A DNA stretch of 64,000 bases from an uncultured Alphaproteobacteria bacterium (lineage in GTDB: Bacteria; Pseudomonadota; Alphaproteobacteria; Rs-D84). Under the pieces are notes generated by a model. It had not been told where the DNA came from. It made no database searches and was given only the letters and a program-made list of their open reading frames with translations. This document shows positions 310 to 40,547 of the stretch, in pieces. Position 1 is the first letter of the stretch, and each line of letters starts with the position of its first letter. The stretch spans positions 128 through 64,127 of the forward strand of contig CAJGDG010000002.1 of the NCBI GenBank assembly GCA_904502095.1. The letters run 5' to 3'. The translations under genes and the position numbers were made by a program.

Positions 310-2283
310 ATGAAATTATTTAAGCGATTTTTATTGTTGGTTTTCTGCGCACTGCCGACCTTGGCGGTGGGGCAGGTTGCAACCACCGCGGGCAGTAATT
401 TAACCGCATGGAACGGTAATGCGGGGTCTACAAATAACAATAATTGGAACCAATTAATGAACAATCGTACCGGCGCGGCCACTGCGGCCAAGGCTGATTT
501 CGGCAACTGTAATTCATTGATTTTACGCTGTGCGCAACCAAAATGTGCTGCGTGTACAACAATGGAATTGGCGAAACCTGTTGTGTCGGGTTGTGTAAAT
601 TCGAACAAAGATTGTAAAAAACACGGTGATGATTTGATTGAATTTATCGCTGCGCAAATTGTTGCAAGTGCCGCACAAAAACAACAGGCGGCTGAATTGG
701 CGGCGTCCCAGGCCGCGGCCCAGGCGGCGGCTGCGCAAAATTCCCAACAAATGCAACAAATGCAAATGCAGATGCAGCAAATGCAACAGCAAATGCAACA
801 ACAAAACGCCAATCAGATGGCGCAAATGCAGGCTGCATTGGATGAACAAAAACAATTGGTTGCCCAGGCCCAGGCCGAAGCGGCCGCCGCCCAACAGGCC
901 AAGGCGGATGCAGAAAACGCCAAATCCGCGGCACCGGTTGGGGTGACCGCTGCGCAACAGAATGCGATTAACGCCGGGATCAGTGAAGATGTTTTATTCC
1001 GTCAACAGGCCAGTGGCGAAATCTTGACTGCGATTGAAAATGCAGAGGTGCAGTTAAAGGCGATGGAAACATCGTTAAAATCGTTGTTCGATTATGCGGG
1101 CTGTGATTCGCGTGGTGGAAACTGTGTTGGGCCAAAGCGGGTCAAGGTTTTTAAAGACAAAGCGCGCCCGATTTTTGACAATTTTGATAATGTCGCAGAC
1201 GAATTGTATGAAGCGTTGGAAACGGCGCTGATGCTGGGCGTTGATGTCAGCGATGTTTTAATGATGTTAAATGGTTCGTGTAATCGTTGGGGTCGTTATA
1301 TGTGTCAATCAGATGGTATTTGCACCGACGAAAACAAAGGTTGTACGAAGGGACAACCGTATCATGAGGTTGCAAAATATGATAGCAGCTCTTGTGTTGG
1401 TGGTAAGTCTGTGGCCATCGGCAATGTTAGAGGAAACATGGAATGTCGTGAAAAAACTGCTGTCCCTCCCCAGGACGATATTCGTTGCACAATGATTGGA
1501 TACTTTTCGGCTGATGATACCGATGAGGTTCGTCGTGAATGGATTGATGAAAATTACGAAGGTGACCGTATGGTGCGAATTGGGTGTGCGTCTTCGGCGT
1601 TGGATTCTATTGGCATCTTTTCGCGCCGCCGTGGCAAAAAGGCCAGTACGCTTGATTTGGATACGTTGGAACGCATTTTGGAACAAGACGCAACGGATAT
1701 GGGGGGCAGCAGATATAACGATAAAACCGTGCGCGACAATGAAAAATTACAATACTGTGCATTAAGTGTTGATGGATACAGAATTTTAAACAAAGCTATT
1801 AATACAAAAAAATTTAGTCAAAGCGATGTTTGTGTTGAAACGGCTGATTTGCGTAGCGATGTGCGAAATGGAAATTGGGTTCGCGCACTGGACAGTGATT
1901 CTGGGCGCTATTTAAACCATATCCCCGAAGCGTATGACAAAGGCTCATGCGAAAAGTTGGGAGAAAATCAAGCCTGTTGGGAAGAGGGGACCAAAAAGTG
2001 TTGGGTGCGTAAATGTAATAGCGGTAATTGTAGCGTTGCCACTGCGTGTACGGGGGAATGTGGAACCAATGAATGTGGTATGTGGAACTATTGGAATGGC
2101 GGAACGGTTGTGACGGTTGGTGCCAACGATAACGAGAACAAATGTAAAATGCATGGACATATATGGTATAGTAAGGATCAGCTAGCAGCAAATAAATTTA
2201 CAAACCAAGAAGCGTGCTGTAAGCAAAATGGAAACGGTCATTTTGATACTAATTTGGGGAAGTGCGTGCCTGCAAGCGGATGA
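310..2283 (+). CDS. Secreted Cys-rich protein with a Gln/Ala-rich coiled-coil region (hypothetical, 657 aa)
   Basis: Signal peptide MKLFKRFLLLVFCALPTLAVG; 31 Cys; low-complexity QQMQQMQMQMQQMQQQMQQQ; GAGAG SD upstream; no enzyme motif recognised. Confidence 0.75.
   Translation: MKLFKRFLLLVFCALPTLAVGQVATTAGSNLTAWNGNAGSTNNNNWNQLMNNRTGAATAAKADFGNCNSLILRCAQPKCAACTTMELAKPVVSGCVNSNKDCKKHGDDLIEFIAAQIVASAAQKQQAAELAASQAAAQAAAAQNSQQMQQMQMQMQQMQQQMQQQNANQMAQMQAALDEQKQLVAQAQAEAAAAQQAKADAENAKSAAPVGVTAAQQNAINAGISEDVLFRQQASGEILTAIENAEVQLKAMETSLKSLFDYAGCDSRGGNCVGPKRVKVFKDKARPIFDNFDNVADELYEALETALMLGVDVSDVLMMLNGSCNRWGRYMCQSDGICTDENKGCTKGQPYHEVAKYDSSSCVGGKSVAIGNVRGNMECREKTAVPPQDDIRCTMIGYFSADDTDEVRREWIDENYEGDRMVRIGCASSALDSIGIFSRRRGKKASTLDLDTLERILEQDATDMGGSRYNDKTVRDNEKLQYCALSVDGYRILNKAINTKKFSQSDVCVETADLRSDVRNGNWVRALDSDSGRYLNHIPEAYDKGSCEKLGENQACWEEGTKKCWVRKCNSGNCSVATACTGECGTNECGMWNYWNGGTVVTVGANDNENKCKMHGHIWYSKDQLAANKFTNQEACCKQNGNGHFDTNLGKCVPASG
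745..806 (+). repeat. Imperfect CAAATG/CAGATG microsatellite-like tract inside the CDS (encodes the QM repeats)
   Basis: caacaaatgcaacaaatgcaaatgcagatgcagcaaatgcaacagcaaatgcaacaacaa. Confidence 0.8.
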
Positions 2284-2287
2284 AACA

Positions 2288-3031
2288 ATGGTTAATAAAA
2301 AAAGTATCTTTTATGGTTTGATTGTGGCGGTGTTTACGGCTGTGTTTGTTATGCCGTCTTTTGCCGCAGATGACTCCTGTATGAGCGAAGATAAGGATAT
2401 GATTGCCGCGCCGTTCGCAATGTGTTCAACACATGCCTATAATATCGGTAAGACGGAAAATCCCGATTCCGCTGACCGCGCACTGATGAAGGAAGTTATT
2501 GGTTTGAAAACAACCTTTTTTACCCAGCAATTGTACAAGCAATATGATCAACTGGAATCGATGGTGCGTCGATTGAAAACGCAATTAAAAAAGGCGGTGT
2601 TAACGAATAATCTGAAAGCAGCCGGCGCAAAATCTGAAAAAGATGATGACAGTGGTTCTTCTTATTCTGCGTCCAAGGACGATTATGTTCAGATTTCTGG
2701 TGCAAAAGATTGTACAACTTCGTGGTCGAAAAAAGAGATTTTCGATTGTTTGGCGGGAAATTATATTCTTATCAAAAATGGCGACAAGTCAACTGCATAC
2801 AAAAAGCAACTGAAAACGGATTATAATTTGGCGTGTAAAAATGTTGCTGCAGACGATAAATGTTCGGATACATATAAATGTAAGAAATCTATCAGCGGCA
2901 ATAACTTTTCTGAATGTTTGAATGATTTATATAGTCTTATTGTTGCCGGTAAAGAAGCCGCCGCAGATACGGAAGCAAAGCGAAATAACCCGTTTCAACA
3001 TCTGATGAATAATAATAATAGTGGAAGCTAA
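2288..3031 (+). CDS. Secreted 8-Cys hypothetical protein (247 aa)
   Basis: In-frame ATG 5 nt after the upstream stop; signal peptide MVNKKSIFYGLIVAVFTAVFVMPSFAA; followed by a terminator. Confidence 0.7.
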   Translation: MVNKKSIFYGLIVAVFTAVFVMPSFAADDSCMSEDKDMIAAPFAMCSTHAYNIGKTENPDSADRALMKEVIGLKTTFFTQQLYKQYDQLESMVRRLKTQLKKAVLTNNLKAAGAKSEKDDDSGSSYSASKDDYVQISGAKDCTTSWSKKEIFDCLAGNYILIKNGDKSTAYKKQLKTDYNLACKNVAADDKCSDTYKCKKSISGNNFSECLNDLYSLIVAGKEAAADTEAKRNNPFQHLMNNNNSGS

Positions 3032-3033
3032 AC

Positions 3034-3059
3034 AAAAAACCGGCCCCGCCGGTTTTTTT
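3034..3059 (+). terminator. Rho-independent terminator
   Basis: AAAAAACCGGC-CCC-GCCGGTTTTTTT immediately after the stop at 3031. Confidence 0.8.
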
Positions 3060-3071
3060 ATTCCCAAGGGA

Positions 3072-3102
3072 CAAGTGGTTAGTGATTAGTGAATGAATTA
3101 TT
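3072..3102. repeat. Right arm of the cassette-flanking inverted repeat
   Basis: CAAGTGGTTAGTGATTAGTGAATGAATTATT is the reverse complement of 165-192 with a 7-nt internal duplication. Confidence 0.75.
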
Positions 3103-3234
3103 TTAAATATTAACATAATAAAAAAAATATTGCCGCTCTTTGTCATCCTGTGGCTTGACCACAGGACCCAGGTTATATTTCAATCCCTTTGTCATCCTGT
3201 GGCTTGACCACAGGACCCAGGTTATTTATGCAAA

Positions 3235-35464: not shown

Positions 35465-35632
35465 TTATTTATGTTTTGTATTGTTGTATTGCTTTTGTAT
35501 GTGTTTTATTTGTGCTTGTTTATATTGTTGCGCAATATAACGTTTTTTATATCGTTCTTCTTGACGATGTATTTTTGCGTTTGCCTCTACAGCACTCATT
35601 TCGCGCAGAGTTCTAATTAAATCATTAATCAT
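35465..35632 (-). CDS. Small basic ORF orf55b (55 aa) MINDLIRTLREMSAVEANAKIHRQEERYKKRYIAQQYKQAQIKHIQKQYNNTKHK
   Basis: Hand-translated. The ATG overlaps the orf55a stop (ATGA). The stop lies 4 nt before the miaB ATG. Below the ORF-track length cutoff. Confidence 0.45.
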   Translation of the reverse strand: MINDLIRTLREMSAVEANAKIHRQEERYKKRYIAQQYKQAQIKHIQKQYNNTKHK

Positions 35633-35796
35633 TTTTGTCTTGTATTGTTGTAGTAGTGTTTTGCTTTTGCAAGTTTTACTTGTTTTACAGTGTTGTTATA
35701 ATTTCTTTTTGTTTCAACTTCGTCATGCAATTCAACCAGGCCATATACAACACCGGTAATATGATTGTTTTCAATAATAGTCAAATGTTTTGTCAT
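35629..35796 (-). CDS. Small ORF orf55a (55 aa) MTKHLTIIENNHITGVVYGLVELHDEVETKRNYNNTVKQVKLAKAKHYYNNTRQK
   Basis: Hand-translated. AAGGA SD 6 nt upstream. Starts 13 nt after the gatB stop. Confidence 0.5.
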   Translation of the reverse strand: MTKHLTIIENNHITGVVYGLVELHDEVETKRNYNNTVKQVKLAKAKHYYNNTRQK

Positions 35797-35809: not shown

Positions 35810-37330
35810 TTATGCCAATTTATTGCGTAAAATCTCGTTTACAACTGCAGGATTTGCAGTGCCGCCTGTTGCCTTCATAACATTGCCGACAAAGAAGCCC
35901 AGTAACCCAAGTTTACCAGATTTGTATTGTTCAACCTGAGATGGATTGGCGGATATTACATCGTCTATTATTTTTTCGATTGCGCCCGTGTCAGTCATTT
36001 GTTTCATGCCGAATTTATCTGCGATTTCACGTGGCGTTCCCGATTCTCCATCCAGCATTTTTATAAAGATTTCTTTGGCCTGTTTTCCGTTAACTGCGTT
36101 TTCGGAAATCATATCTACCAATTCTGCCAAATCGGATGGCGTGATGATTCGCATGCCGTCAACAATGCCGCTTTTTTCATTTAAGATGTCATAGTTTTCT
36201 GGATGCGCAAACAGTTCGCTTATCATCCAGTTAGCAACAGATTTTGCGCGTTTTGTGTTGCCCATAACCGCTGCGTCAAACCAGCGAGATATATCTGTTG
36301 TTTCTGTTAATCTGGCAGCATCATATTCAGACAGCCCGAATTCCGCCGTATAGCGCGCGCGTGTTTGTGATGGTAGCTCTGGCATGGTGCTGCGAATGCG
36401 TTCGATTTGTTCGTCGCTGATTATGACCGGTAATAAATCTGGGTCTGGGAAATAGCGATAATCCAGTGCGTCTTCTTTGCTGCGCGCGACAGATGTTGTG
36501 CCTTCGCCTTGGTTAAAGTGCATTGTGTCTTGTGAAACAGTGCCACCGTTTTCATAAATTTCAATTTGACGACGCGCTTCATATTCAATAGCAGTTTTGA
36601 TAAATTTAAACGAAACCATATTTTTTGTTTCTGTGCGGGTTCTGAATTCAGAACTGCCAACTGGACGAACTGATACATTTACGTCTGCGCGCATAGAGCC
36701 TTCTTCCATATTTGCGCGCGATACGCCCAACGCGCGTGCAATTTCACGAATTTCGCGCAGATATCTTTCGGCTTCGTCAGGGGAAGTAATATATGAGTTG
36801 TTTTCAGGATTTTTTGTGTCCAGATATGTGACAATTTCCAGCAGACCAACGCCTGTACGATTATAATCTGCAAAGGATTTTGTTGGATGTACATCGTGTT
36901 TTAATTTGCCGGCATCTTGTTCCAAGTGTGCACGTTCGATGAATATTTTTTTGGGTTTCCCATCATCGCCCATAATTTCAATCCAACCGTGACCAACGAT
37001 TGGCGCTTCGTCCGCTGGTTGTGAAATTTGATAGCCTTGGGGCAGGTCAGGATAGAAATATTGTTTGCGGGCAAAACGACTGGTGCGGGAAATTTCGGCA
37101 TTTAATCCCAATCCCATTTTTATTACCTGTTCAACACAGAATTTGTTCAGTACAGGCAACATACCTGGCATTCCTGCGTCAATCATTGAAACATGGGTGT
37201 TTGGGCTGATGCTGGGGTTATAGTCCGCAGATGCGCCGCTGAAAACCTTTGAGTTTGACAATATTTGGATGTGTGTTTCCAAACCGATTACCAATTCCCA
37301 ATCACATGTTTTGCCTTTTATTGTAAACAT
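35810..37330 (-). CDS. gatB: Asp/Glu-tRNA amidotransferase subunit B
   Basis: WELVIGLETHIQL..SK.FS and the PDLP/YFPDPDLLP motifs; 506 aa. Confidence 0.92.
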   Translation of the reverse strand: MFTIKGKTCDWELVIGLETHIQILSNSKVFSGASADYNPSISPNTHVSMIDAGMPGMLPVLNKFCVEQVIKMGLGLNAEISRTSRFARKQYFYPDLPQGYQISQPADEAPIVGHGWIEIMGDDGKPKKIFIERAHLEQDAGKLKHDVHPTKSFADYNRTGVGLLEIVTYLDTKNPENNSYITSPDEAERYLREIREIARALGVSRANMEEGSMRADVNVSVRPVGSSEFRTRTETKNMVSFKFIKTAIEYEARRQIEIYENGGTVSQDTMHFNQGEGTTSVARSKEDALDYRYFPDPDLLPVIISDEQIERIRSTMPELPSQTRARYTAEFGLSEYDAARLTETTDISRWFDAAVMGNTKRAKSVANWMISELFAHPENYDILNEKSGIVDGMRIITPSDLAELVDMISENAVNGKQAKEIFIKMLDGESGTPREIADKFGMKQMTDTGAIEKIIDDVISANPSQVEQYKSGKLGLLGFFVGNVMKATGGTANPAVVNEILRNKLA

Positions 37331-37385: not shown

Positions 37386-37461
37386 GGCTAGGTAGCTCAG
37401 TTGGTAGAGCAAGGGACTGAAAATCCCTGTGTCGGCGGTTCGATTCCGTCCCTAGCCACCA
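37386..37461 (+). tRNA. tRNA-Phe (anticodon GAA), CCA encoded, antisense to the gatA-gatB spacer
   Basis: GGCTAGGTAGCTCAGTTGGTAGAGCAAGGGACTGAAAATCCCTGTGTCGGCGGTTCGATTCCGTCCCTAGCCACCA. Anticodon loop CTGAAAA. Confidence 0.92.
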
Positions 37462-37473
37462 TCTCCTTTCTTT

Positions 37474-37495
37474 CGGCCGTTGCGGTCGTTTTTTT
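37474..37495 (+). terminator. Terminator of tRNA-Phe; its T tract overlaps the gatA stop codon
   Basis: CGGCCG-TTG-CGGTCG followed by TTTTTTT. Confidence 0.65.
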
Positions 37496-38960
37496 ATTTC
37501 CCCATAATTGTTGTTGGGCGGTTGTCGATGTTTGCCGCAGATTCGATATGTTTTGCCAATTGCAATACACGCATATCGTCAAAGCGAGCACCTATAACTT
37601 GCATCCCCAGTGGCAGACCGTTTTGTGCCAAGCCACATGGTACGCTGCACGCAGGAATGCCGACCAAATTCATAGCGACGGTAAATAAATCCAGCGCGTA
37701 ATATTCCAGCGGTTTTAAATCGGACGCCAAAGACATTGCAGTTCCAGCGCTGGATGGACATACGATTAAATCACATTTCTTGAACGCTGCGTTAAAAGCG
37801 TCGGAAATCAGACGGCGAACGCGTGCTGCCTGCATAAAATATACATCGTATGATTCACTGCTTAATACGGCGGTGCCGATAATCATACGGCGCTTTACTT
37901 CGTCACCGAAACCGGCAGCACGGCTTTTGTCAAATGTGTCATATATATCATTACCTTCGACGCGCAAACCATAACGCATACCGTCATAGCGTGCCAGGTT
38001 TGAAGATGCTTCGGCTGGGGCGATTATATAATATGCCGCCAATGCGTCCAGAATGTTTGGGATAGAAACTTCTACTATTTCTGCGCCCAAGGATTTTAAA
38101 TCTGCGATTCGTTTTTCAAACAATGTTTTCATATCGTCTGAAATTTCAACATTTGCAAATTCTTTGATAACACCAACGCGCAGTTTTTTGCCGTTGCCCA
38201 AAATTGCTTCCAATGGGCCGTTGCATTTAAAGCCGTTTTTCGCACTTGTCGAATCTTTTTCGTCGTGTCCTGCCATTGCTGCCAGCATTAATGCTGCATC
38301 ATCAACAGTGCGCGCGATTGGGCCTGGGGTGTCCAAACTGGATGCGTATGCAATACAACCCCATCTGGAACATAAGCCATATGTTGGTTTCATGCCAACC
38401 ATACCTGTAATCGCAGCGGGAAAGCGAATAGAACCGCCTGTGTCTGTGCCTGTTGCGGCGATTGCCAAACCACCCGCAACAGCCGATGTTGAACCACCAG
38501 ATGAACCGCCGGCGGTTAACCGTTTTTCCATTTGCCATGGGTTAATTGGTGCGCCAAAGAAACTGGTCTTGCTGAAAGTGCCCATTGCAAATTCGTCAAG
38601 ATTTACCTTGCCCAGTAAAACTGTACCCGCATTAATCAGATTTTGTGAAACGGTCGACTCGTATTCTGGTACAAAATTTTCCAGCATTTTTGATGCTGCT
38701 GTTGTGCGAATGCCACGTGTTGCAAACAAGTCTTTCATTGCAATTGGCAAACCGTCCAACGGCAGGGCGGCGCCAGCCGCACGACGCGCATCAGATGCGG
38801 CTGCATCAGCCATGGCGCGTTCCGGTGTGACAGTGATATAGCAATTTAAATCAGCACCATATTTTTCAATGCGGTCTAAATAGTCGCGTGTTAATTCAAC
38901 TGCGCTGATTTCGCCGTTGTTTAATTTTTTTAATGCTTCGGTTAATGTTAAGTTTATCAT
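37494..38960 (-). CDS. gatA: Glu-tRNA(Gln) amidotransferase subunit A
   Basis: Amidase signature GGSSGGSTSAVA and GTDTGGSIRFPA. Confidence 0.93.
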   Translation of the reverse strand: MINLTLTEALKKLNNGEISAVELTRDYLDRIEKYGADLNCYITVTPERAMADAAASDARRAAGAALPLDGLPIAMKDLFATRGIRTTAASKMLENFVPEYESTVSQNLINAGTVLLGKVNLDEFAMGTFSKTSFFGAPINPWQMEKRLTAGGSSGGSTSAVAGGLAIAATGTDTGGSIRFPAAITGMVGMKPTYGLCSRWGCIAYASSLDTPGPIARTVDDAALMLAAMAGHDEKDSTSAKNGFKCNGPLEAILGNGKKLRVGVIKEFANVEISDDMKTLFEKRIADLKSLGAEIVEVSIPNILDALAAYYIIAPAEASSNLARYDGMRYGLRVEGNDIYDTFDKSRAAGFGDEVKRRMIIGTAVLSSESYDVYFMQAARVRRLISDAFNAAFKKCDLIVCPSSAGTAMSLASDLKPLEYYALDLFTVAMNLVGIPACSVPCGLAQNGLPLGMQVIGARFDDMRVLQLAKHIESAANIDNRPTTIMGK

Positions 38961-39349
38961 TTTGTTTTACTTTCGTTTTGTTTTGCTTTTAATACAGCGT
39001 TTGTTGTTCTGATTTGTGTTTCGCACTTTGCTTTTTCGGCGTTTAATTTTTTTATTGCATCTTCTAGTGCCCGAATTTCTGCATCAATATTTTTTGATTT
39101 GTTTTCTAGGGTTTGTTTTTGCTGTTCAAGGCCAGAAATGTCATTTGTGTTAAAACTGTTTTGTTGCAGTTTTGTAATTGCGCTTGTTATTTCTTCATAG
39201 CCCTTGGCGCCAAGTTGGCGAATGTGTTTAATAAAGTTGGAATCGCTGTAATACAGGTCTAACAAGCTTGCAACAGAATCAATACCAAATGATTTTAATC
39301 TGTTTGATGTGCGAGTAGATAAATTCAAAGAGTCTAAATCGCGTTGCAT
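38957..39349 (-). CDS. Small protein with an RNA polymerase alpha-CTD-like helix-hairpin-helix domain plus a C-terminal coiled-coil (130 aa)
   Basis: LNLSTRTSNRLKSFGIDSVASLL...IRQLGAKGYEEITSAI matches L.LS.R..N.L...gI.tv..L......l....G.ks..EI. The stop overlaps the gatA ATG (ATGA). Confidence 0.5.
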   Translation of the reverse strand: MQRDLDSLNLSTRTSNRLKSFGIDSVASLLDLYYSDSNFIKHIRQLGAKGYEEITSAITKLQQNSFNTNDISGLEQQKQTLENKSKNIDAEIRALEDAIKKLNAEKAKCETQIRTTNAVLKAKQNESKTK

Positions 39350-39358
39350 TTTTAGTCC

Positions 39359-39760
39359 TTACTTTTGTTTTGAATAATATTCAGGAAACAGGTATATACC
39401 AATAGTGCTTTGTACAAATTTGTTTGTGCATTTACCTGATTTGATATTCCCCAGACATTGTGATTTATGACATTTGCATTTGCGACCAAAAGAGCAATTT
39501 AATGTGACATGATTGTGAATGTCTGTTTGGTAAAAATATTTTTCGTTTTCATTTGTTAAACAATGTGCGATATAGCCGTTCGATAATGAACCGGATATTT
39601 GTTTGATACAGTCTGTTTTTGTAGGGTTTGACTGCGCCAATGTCTGAAACAAATTTGTGATTGTTTCTTCGCTGTGACGACCTGTGTCAATAATGTGTTT
39701 TTTAAACAGGCCTTTCGCAACCAAATATACGCGAAAAAGTTGTGGTGATTGTTTGCTCAT
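39359..39760 (-). CDS. Cys-rich hypothetical protein (133 aa)
   Basis: C-terminal cluster CSFGRKCKCHKSQCLGNIKSGKC. The ATG lies 3 nt after the gatC stop. Confidence 0.5.
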   Translation of the reverse strand: MSKQSPQLFRVYLVAKGLFKKHIIDTGRHSEETITNLFQTLAQSNPTKTDCIKQISGSLSNGYIAHCLTNENEKYFYQTDIHNHVTLNCSFGRKCKCHKSQCLGNIKSGKCTNKFVQSTIGIYLFPEYYSKQK

Positions 39761-39763
39761 TTT

Positions 39764-40060
39764 TTATTCCCCGTCTTTTACTTTGGGGACCGCGAAATAC
39801 CCGCGTGATGTTCCCGCGTTGTCAGGAGTGTTCGCCAAAACCAGGTCACGAATGTCGCCGTCTGTGACAATGTCTTCACGGACGGGCGCACCGTGTTCTG
39901 CGGGCGTTAACATTGGCTCAACACCGGCAGTGTCAATTTGTTGTAATTTGTCCAGCCATTCAACAACGGAATCGATGTTCATTTCTTCCAATTTTTCGGG
40001 TGCGATTTCGATGTGAATCAAGTGTGCAAATTTTTGTAATTGTTGCTTGCTAAATGCCAT
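39764..40060 (-). CDS. gatC: Asp/Glu-tRNA amidotransferase subunit C
   Basis: IDTAGVEPMLTP...VREDIV...YFAVPKV. ATG with AGGA SD; the ORF track extends to a TTG at 40066. Confidence 0.88.
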   Translation of the reverse strand: MAFSKQQLQKFAHLIHIEIAPEKLEEMNIDSVVEWLDKLQQIDTAGVEPMLTPAEHGAPVREDIVTDGDIRDLVLANTPDNAGTSRGYFAVPKVKDGE

Positions 40061-40097
40061 TTTCAATCCTATATTTATAAAGTAAAGGAATTATACA

Positions 40098-40547
40098 ATG
40101 ATTTTGCCAGATTTCAAGGCTTTTCCGCGCAGCGGACGCATTTTGGGAATAGATTGGGGTGTGCGCCGCATTGGTGTGGCGGTGACTGACCCCGATATGA
40201 ACTTTGTTTTTGTGCGTGATACAATTTTGTTGCCGCGTGGTGCGAAAAATCATGCTGTGTTGGTTGCAGATATTGCTGAAGTGGAAAAGGTGCACGGAAT
40301 TGTTGTGGGCTTGCCCGTGCGCGGGGACGGTTCGGAATCTGAAACAACTGTGATGGTTCGTGAATTTGTTTTGCAACTGGAAAAGGAAACAGATTTGCCG
40401 ATTTGTATGCTGGAAGAAAATTTAACATCTGTGCAGGCGCAATCTGAAATGGGGCGGACCAGGGTATCCGATTTAAAGGAACGGTTGGATTCTGAATCTG
40501 CGCGTGTAATATTGGAAAATGCGATTGCAATGATAAAACGGGCATAA
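40098..40547 (+). CDS. ruvX: YqgF/RuvX putative pre-16S rRNA nuclease
   Basis: ILGIDWGVRRIGVAVTD...IVVGLPV. Confidence 0.88.
   Translation: MILPDFKAFPRSGRILGIDWGVRRIGVAVTDPDMNFVFVRDTILLPRGAKNHAVLVADIAEVEKVHGIVVGLPVRGDGSESETTVMVREFVLQLEKETDLPICMLEENLTSVQAQSEMGRTRVSDLKERLDSESARVILENAIAMIKRA

Follow-up and report, generated by a model that had tools for sequence, protein, structure and literature searches.

Several bacterial loci are known in which conserved core genes enclose a variable segment, such as the pneumococcal capsule locus between dexB and aliA, the O-antigen locus between galF and gnd, and defence hot spots. Integrons, in turn, carry arrays of small promoterless, co-oriented and interchangeable genes behind one upstream promoter. 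A locus that recalls both is found in a 64,000-nt stretch of DNA (contig CAJGDG010000002.1; hereafter the window, meaning the whole stretch) from an uncultured alphaproteobacterium. On its minus strand, two small genes, orf133 (133 amino acids, aa; 39359-39760) and orf130 (130 aa; 38957-39349), lie between gatC (39764-40066) and gatA (37494-38960), which encode subunits of the amidotransferase GatCAB. Comparison with related genomes suggests that orf133 and orf130 form an accessory cassette pair, here termed A+B, that fills a hypervariable slot between gatC and gatA in Candidatus Enterousia; we give this reading a probability of about 60%. The cassettes would be mobile accessory genes that hitch-hike in an essential operon. 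A preliminary description, made from the letters of the window, had mentioned a hitch-hiking small regulator as one possibility, and the hitch-hiking part of that idea agrees with the horizontal swapping of cassettes within the operon. The locus is not mentioned in published work on Enterousia/Rs-D84 or on gatCAB.

GatA places the window in Candidatus Enterousia (Alphaproteobacteria, order Rs-D84). These are gut bacteria with genomes smaller than 1 Mb that lack a respiratory chain, possess few biosynthetic pathways and have been proposed to rely on a partner organism (PMC12306168). The locus was compared across 80 species-representative genomes, the best 80 of 252 GatA relatives, in which GatA is 80-90% identical to that of the window; every sequence comes from a metagenome assembly. 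Among the 80 species, gatC and gatA lie between 6 and 1642 nt apart, and the interval holds zero to four small co-oriented genes with no room for promoters or terminators of their own. Four families of open reading frames (ORFs) occupy this gap: A (orf133-like), B (orf130-like), C (~92 aa) and D (~220 aa). Hidden Markov models (HMMs) of these families were run on all six frames of 85 loci (~9.4 kb each) and on the whole 64-kb window, and the families proved to be confined to the slot, except for three A copies upstream of gatC in L047. At that locus, three divergent family-A genes stand in tandem directly upstream of gatC (1867-3126), in addition to one in the slot. In eight of eight further loci from metagenomes of the Joint Genome Institute (JGI), the families again lie between gatC and gatA. 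Homology among the families and GatC was rejected by hhalign, which gave probabilities of ≤1% for all comparisons of A, B, C, D and GatC and ≤0.3% for A and B against GatC. Families C and D have no match in Pfam or PHROGs.

Read from gatC to gatA, the slot contains A by itself in 23 loci and is empty or scarred in 22 (19 with a gap of ≤39 nt and three with scars). AB, the arrangement of the window and its close relatives, is found in ten loci, AD in six, AA in four, AAC and AAAC-type arrays in three each, and CA, CAB and C alone in two each; loci outside these architectures are partial forms. Sister species on a neighbour-joining tree of GatA often differ in slot content, so that the distribution is patchy, and the sampled species nearest to the window (L010) has only a 98-nt remnant. 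The gene arrangement of the window recurs in five independent contigs (from Logan, JGI and the European Nucleotide Archive), and homologues of orf133 and orf130 are present in independent assemblies. Both are real genes rather than chance ORFs.

The most direct evidence for exchange comes from pairs of species with similar cassettes and divergent flanks. At the nucleotide level, A and D are 97-98% identical between L065 and L071 (gatA, 77%), A is 98% identical between L060 and L064 (gatA, 81%), C-A-B is 91-99% identical between L037 and L053 (gatA, 82%), and A is 95.5% identical between L050 and L068 (gatA, 78%). In sliding-window profiles, the rise to 96-100% identity takes place no more than ~50 nt before the end of gatC or in the first cassette itself, and the return to ~80% is complete by ~50 nt into gatA. 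The same A type precedes B in one species and D in another, which indicates that the modules shuffle independently. For the window itself, comparison with the metagenome contig L003 shows orf130 to be 95-100% identical, versus 75-82% for gatC and gatA and 45-65% for orf133; the number of synonymous substitutions per site (dS) is 0.11 in orf130 versus 1.1-1.9 in the flanks. On a finer scale, L004 and L005 are otherwise ~99% identical to the window, and a ~120-nt patch in the coiled-coil region of orf130 is only 60-67% identical, which points to short-tract conversion.

One locus preserves the trace of an insertion. In L075 (4001-4111), an A gene is followed by 104 nt of a duplicated gatA 5′ end, 94% identical to the intact copy. 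An ATGG microhomology links this fragment to a gatC 3′ end (ATGGATGGTGAATAA), after which come a B gene and the intact gatA. As read from these junctions, the scar is the signature of homology-facilitated illegitimate recombination, with one crossover in gatA and one microhomology join; it records how a cassette entered. Traces of loss are seen as well, since deletion scars in L063, L010 and L081 keep the last tens of nucleotides of a cassette ahead of gatA. These observations are consistent with a model in which recombination at the slot would use the last ~50 nt of gatC as its left arm and the first ~50-100 nt of gatA as its right arm. Because the conserved ends of gatC and gatA would serve as borrowed homology arms, no mobility gene would be needed.

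Conserved flanks, unrelated alternative contents, patchiness and breakpoints in the flanks, through which contents are exchanged, are thus shared between the gat slot and the variable loci flanked by core genes. The slot differs from these in lying inside one essential operon, between subunits of one enzyme. Its inserts are promoterless genes of 0.3-0.7 kb coupled to the flanking genes, its arms measure just tens of nucleotides, and its contents show no match to known defence or surface-structure genes. Resemblance to integron cassettes is limited to the arrangement of small promoterless co-oriented interchangeable genes behind one upstream promoter. No inverted repeats, attC-like sites or flanking repeats were found at the cassette boundaries, where spacers of 0-15 nt leave no room for attC sites, and an integron cassette array was therefore rejected. 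No integrase was seen at the gat loci, though no search for one was made, and movement of the cassettes looks like homologous plus illegitimate recombination. A phage or plasmid origin was also rejected: IMG/VR viral contigs contain no relatives, and tblastn searches of INPHARED phages and PLSDB plasmids returned none.

Homologues at random loci away from the gat genes, a possibility raised in the preliminary description, were looked for: about 100 family-A loci lie in the gat slot, and a single one (L086) lies elsewhere. Such residence, which is almost exclusive for these ~100 family-A genes and holds for all family-B genes, would be expected of a lineage-specific accessory of the amidotransferase. 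In that case orf130, which has a nucleic-acid-binding fold and is coupled to gatA in translation together with orf133, would tether GatCAB to tRNA or DNA, as the preliminary description had suggested, and orf133 would be its metal-binding partner. Hp0100 of Helicobacter pylori is reportedly a non-Gat protein proposed to work with GatCAB; it has no sequence relationship to orf133 or orf130, and the cassettes differ from it in being dispensable and replaceable across close species. The distribution of the genes does not fit an obligate GatCAB accessory, because 22 of 80 species have an empty or scarred slot and only eight of the 80 possess B. Moreover, the non-homologous families C and D replace or accompany A and B, the cassettes travel horizontally without their gat flanks, and the family-A member at the non-gat locus is fused to an acyl carrier protein (ACP)-like domain. 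Neither gene product resembles GatC, GatA or GatB, and searches with the NCBIfam and Pfam Gat models gave no match. In sum, the pair can be lost or replaced, passes horizontally between species and has no homology to Gat proteins. On these tests the tether proposal fails, and an accessory function of the pair in GatCAB is very improbable. Co-location in the gat slot more probably reflects where cassettes can recombine than a functional link with the amidotransferase.

The accessory-cassette reading also accounts for how promoterless genes may be expressed. gatC is identified by an NCBIfam equivalog model (TIGR00135, 60.8 bits) and gatA by TIGR00132 (525.8 bits). The TAA of gatC is separated by 3 nt from the ATG of orf133, and the end of gatC (GGGGAA/TAA) provides a Shine-Dalgarno sequence for the first cassette. 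orf133 ends in ...AAA CAA AAG TAA; between this stop codon and the ATG of orf130 lie 9 nt, GGACTAAAA, that include an AGGA-type Shine-Dalgarno sequence. The TGA of orf130 overlaps the ATG of gatA (ATGA, 38957-38960). The coupling of the two genes to each other and to gatA, as first described, is borne out by these tight junctions. The best-scoring promoter-like site of the region, TTGAAA-16-TATAAT (40090-40117, minus strand; 11/12, a consensus match only), is situated directly upstream of gatC and is likely to be the operon promoter. No minus-strand terminator-like site was found between gatC and gatA, and no Rfam element or regulatory RNA was found in the region besides tRNA-Phe. Transcription of the cassettes would start at the gatC promoter and their translation would depend on coupling, and the 3′ end of each cassette would be the initiation region for the next gene and lastly for the essential gatA. 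This implies that a cassette must be lost precisely, and that end is what the deletion scars keep.

The fact that every junction is built for coupling, together with the retention of cassette 3′ ends before gatA in the scars, could also be taken to mean that the ORFs act in cis, as spacers that tune how much GatC is translated relative to GatA, or how stable the mRNA is, while their protein products are incidental. Selection on the proteins argues strongly against this. All cassette families are under purifying selection, with ratios of nonsynonymous to synonymous substitution rates (dN/dS) of 0.1-0.4; invariant Cys, Gly and Tyr residues, a confidently predicted common fold and an α C-terminal domain (α-CTD) point in the same direction. 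The cis reading is already largely refuted by the selection data and can be given hardly any credence. Pairwise dN/dS of orf133 and orf130 is 0.29-0.39 where substitutions suffice, compared with 0.05-0.12 for gatA, and among 36 family-A pairs it is 0.1-0.3 in the variable and conserved halves alike. Family-A alleles share a median of 56% nucleotide identity and 15-30% aa identity. Such low identity combined with low dN/dS implies old, maintained and shuffled allelic lineages rather than decay or detectable gene-wide positive selection. GC content is 0.33-0.39 in the cassettes and 0.41-0.47 in the gat genes. Deep allelic divergence, horizontal swapping and presence/absence variation together resemble the pattern of loci under frequency-dependent selection, which might stem from phage, host or inter-microbial conflict.

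orf133 represents a protein family without names in the library searched. It has no match in Pfam, NCBIfam, PHROGs or PADLOC, and a search of all 107 family-A members against Pfam at E≤1 gave no recurrent family. A word-indexed search of 5.8 billion proteins recovered only one copy, 97% identical. With a family-A profile built from relatives in neighbouring species, HMMER was run exhaustively against 1.84 billion cluster representatives (E≤1e-3) and collected 208 clusters, nearly all of 125-150 aa. The AlphaFold2 model of orf133, based on the alignment of 107 family sequences, has a mean predicted local distance difference test score (pLDDT) of 89.5 and a predicted template modelling score (pTM) of 0.79. 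It predicts two β-hairpins around a helix (residues 8-91), followed by three helices (residues 99-129). orf133 is made up of a variable β-sheet domain (residues 8-91) and a conserved helical Cys module (residues 95-133; 39362-39478, minus strand), the latter including C95/97, C102, G109, C111, Y129 and the tail ...YYSKQK. Foldseek comparison of the model with PDB gave nothing significant (best E 0.1, TM ≤0.33) and that with BFVD a best E of 0.02, with TM ≤0.36 across both libraries; the matches are faint β-grasp look-alikes only. A profile search of PDB sequences was empty.

The preliminary description had noted a dense Cys cluster at the end of orf133, with upstream Cys/His sites, as a possible metal site. 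In the 107 family-A sequences, C51 (39608-39610, minus strand), C95/97, C102 and C111 are kept at 89-100%, and G109, D113 and Y129 are also conserved; by contrast, H66, C67, C89 and H98 are specific to the subgroup of orf133. The cluster thus stands in part, and a metal site is plausible from the four family-wide Cys residues, although the set of residues differs from the one listed at first. No known zinc-finger or Fe-S profile is matched. Four conserved Cys residues and the lack of a signal peptide suggest a structural zinc site, and A is probably a small cytoplasmic protein whose helical module is held by these residues, most likely through zinc.

The genes of family A are intact in three-frame translations and HMM scans, and a pseudogene reading was rejected; only L003 has a frameshift. 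There, the orf133 homologue (237-697) is split across two frames by a 1-nt indel near ...DTGRH, a true frameshift or an assembly error, next to an intact orf130 homologue that is 92% identical. The family-A gene outside the gat context (L086, 1155-1871) encodes the family-A domain behind the ACP-like domain of ~95 aa (a weak PP-binding match, 16.9 bits). An outer-membrane β-barrel-type (autotransporter-like) gene and a terminator precede this fusion gene, which has its own upstream region, and a Cys-rich unknown ORF follows it. Protein P0139 is a similar fusion.

The α-CTD of RNA polymerase is the closest described relative of orf130. Residues 2-58 of orf130 (39176-39346, minus strand) match Pfam RNA_pol_A_CTD (PF03118) with 32.9 bits, above the gathering cut-off of 23.8, as do nine of the 11 family-B members, and solved α-CTD structures are matched as well (for example Thermus 1doq, E 4.6e-4). 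The α-CTD similarity and the helix-hairpin-helix (HhH) pattern, here a double HhH, that had been recognized by eye are therefore confirmed by profile search; both peptide stretches quoted at that time are present in the translations. The coiled coil also holds up: Ile and Leu occupy the a/d heptad positions of about six heptads at residues ~70-112 (39014-39142, minus strand), and this predicted leucine zipper is the region that appears mosaic against L004 and L005. orf130 is not RpoA itself, because it lacks the N-terminal assembly and dimerisation domain. Only positions ~235-312 of the rpoA models are matched, at 17-32 bits against NCBIfam cut-offs of 228-523, and an identity with RpoA was rejected for a protein of 130 aa that holds the CTD part only. 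Unlike the polymerase subunit, orf130 is free-standing, carries a C-terminal leucine zipper, is encoded in a gat operon, is limited to 8 of 80 species and undergoes horizontal exchange.

Only R13, G47 and I54 are invariant across the family-B alignment. R13 and G47 fall on the LSTR and G-x-[KR]-S motifs of Thermus α-CTD 1doq in the alignment, and we take them to be the equivalents of R265 and G296 of Escherichia coli α (E. coli numbering). In E. coli, R265 and G296 contact UP-element DNA. The invariance of these residues and their alignment with the DNA-contact Arg and Gly suggest that DNA binding is retained in B, which appears to be a zipper-dimerised α-CTD-like module. H-NS-type nucleoid proteins likewise combine a coiled-coil oligomerisation module with an AT-rich-DNA domain, and are often carried on mobile DNA. 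orf130 is similar to them in possessing a coiled coil and a small domain predicted to read the AT-rich minor groove, but there is no homology and the domain order is reversed. A homologue of orf130 (P0003, 92% identical) is named a Zn-ribbon protein in JGI. orf130 has a single Cys residue and not the two CxxC-type knuckles of such a protein, so this name is wrong; it most likely stems from a coiled-coil match.

A and B are closely associated. Eight of the 80 species and the lineage of the window carry family B, and in nine of nine lineages it is directly downstream of an A gene and directly upstream of gatA. In L034 (protein P0024), A is fused to a B-type α-CTD domain as one ORF; A-C and A-A fusions have also been found. 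The occurrence of B solely behind A, together with the A-B fusion in one lineage, implies that A and B most likely form one complex. Such a complex would probably act on AT-rich DNA or on partners of RNA polymerase, and would not depend on the amidotransferase.

Small, coupled and horizontally mobile genes of lower GC content, some of them in tandem arrays of divergent paralogues (AAAC, AA) like those of immunity genes, might instead be an addiction module of toxin-antitoxin type or an immunity-gene array kept in the essential operon. However, the genes do not form a constant two-gene unit: in 23 species A has no companion, and elsewhere its companion may be B, C or D. A type II toxin-antitoxin module was accordingly rejected, as domains of such modules are also lacking. 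No toxin, antitoxin, immunity or defence profile is matched, and no cognate toxin gene was seen within about 4 kb. Against the known anti-phage defence systems in PADLOC, orf133 has no match and orf130 has weak partial matches of coiled-coil type to PglW, PbeC and JetC (E ≥1e-5). An addiction or immunity function is very improbable on these grounds.

A further common property of the cassettes is their C-terminal end. The motif [K/N/S]-Q-[K/R] closes almost every protein of families A, C and D, and B proteins end in similar Lys-rich tails; in the window, the ends are ...SKQK (orf133) and ...SKTK (orf130). None of 51 long ORFs of the window has a -Q-[K/R]-type end. The codons of the tail vary synonymously (CAA/CAG, and AAA/AAG/AGA/AGG/CGA/CGT/CGG), implying selection on the peptide. 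At the same time, the tail coincides with the A-rich Shine-Dalgarno-like region before the next start codon and is seen again at cassette ends as a DNA repeat of 15 nt, so that constraints at the level of mRNA or recombination probably contribute too.

Substrates of type IV secretion systems have positively charged C-termini. The cassettes could be secreted or host-targeted effectors, with the basic tail as an export or targeting signal and with variability arising from the interaction of an obligate symbiont or parasite with its host or partner. The sharing of a -Q-[K/R] end by the unrelated families A, C and D, partly by B, and by a 426-aa gene product of the same operons would fit such a role, as would peptide-level selection on a tail that the long ORFs of the window lack, and the predicted partner dependence of Enterousia (PMC12306168). 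On the other hand, no secretion system is known in these genomes, where none was searched for, and PMC12306168 makes no mention of one. Signal peptides are absent, the four conserved Cys residues fit a cytoplasmic zinc site better, and RNA- or DNA-level constraints contribute to the A-rich tail, given its place in the initiation region and the 15-nt repeat. Effector function is therefore unlikely.

A broader proposal can be put forward tentatively, with doubt prevailing: the slot might be an undescribed mobile-gene system that has no promoters, recombinase or repeats of its own and uses borrowed arms. It would be maintained by positional addiction, in that the 3′ end of a cassette would be the translation start region of the essential downstream gene, and hence the cassette would be hard to lose. 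The common -Q-[K/R]-COOH tail would perhaps mark a shared partner, and could address all cassettes to one export, targeting or modification machinery.

Several points weigh against the view that orf133 and orf130 are exchangeable accessory cassettes shaped by conflict. Variable regions of metagenome assemblies are prone to assembly chimeras, although the arrangement of the window recurs in five contigs. Positive selection was not seen, even in the variable half of A, by a crude pairwise method. None of the cassettes matches a known family of defence, anti-defence or toxin genes, so that the label of conflict derives from the population pattern alone. Confinement to the gat operon, almost without exception, might itself stem from a functional link with GatCAB and not only from the opportunity to recombine there. 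Finally, expression of the cassettes is read from sequence alone, and we infer DNA binding by B and metal binding by A from conserved residues.

The 426-aa gene mentioned above is situated directly after gatA, before tRNA-Phe and gatB, in L038 and L065 (5471-6751 in both). Its product ends in ...KQK like the slot cassettes and has no match in Pfam, PHROGs or PDB; an assignment as an ATP-grasp enzyme found no support in these three libraries and was rejected. In L082, a different insert of 231 aa occupies the same position. These post-gatA inserts suggest a second insertion point within the gat operon.

Other features of the locus concern the gat genes and their surroundings. The mechanically defined ORF of gatC begins at a TTG codon (40066), and an in-frame ATG two codons on (MAFSKQQL...; 40060-40066, minus strand) is the likelier start. 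gatB (35810-37330, minus strand; NCBIfam equivalog model) is separated from gatA by tRNA-Phe(GAA), which is encoded on the plus strand (37386-37461), antisense to the gat genes, and is followed on its own strand by a terminator-like hairpin (37474-37488). This antisense tRNA gene is kept between gatA and gatB in 60 of 60 related loci checked, and gatB is thus set apart from gatC and gatA by a conserved convergent tRNA gene. An unannotated ORF of 55 aa (35629-35796, minus strand) begins 13 nt past gatB and is present behind gatB in most related loci. It has a conserved N-terminus, M-x-K-x-I-x-I-I-E-N-N-x-I-T-G-V-x-Y-G-x-V-E, and a variable basic tail, and reaches 151 aa in L054 and L072. The copy in the window ends in ...TRQK, and its stop codon overlaps the ATG of the next gene (ATGA).

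With fewer than ~900 genes and a presumed dependence on a partner, Candidatus Enterousia is an organism in which a locus that swaps genes across species likely marks current conflict or adaptation. The slot yields at least four unannotated protein families. Among them, family A has a confidently predicted fold without known relative, and family B is predicted to be a free-standing, dimerising copy of the α-CTD. For annotation, the locus is a warning that position within an operon does not imply function with the enzyme of that operon. More generally, the slot shows that genes can be mobile without mobility machinery, living between the conserved ends of essential genes.

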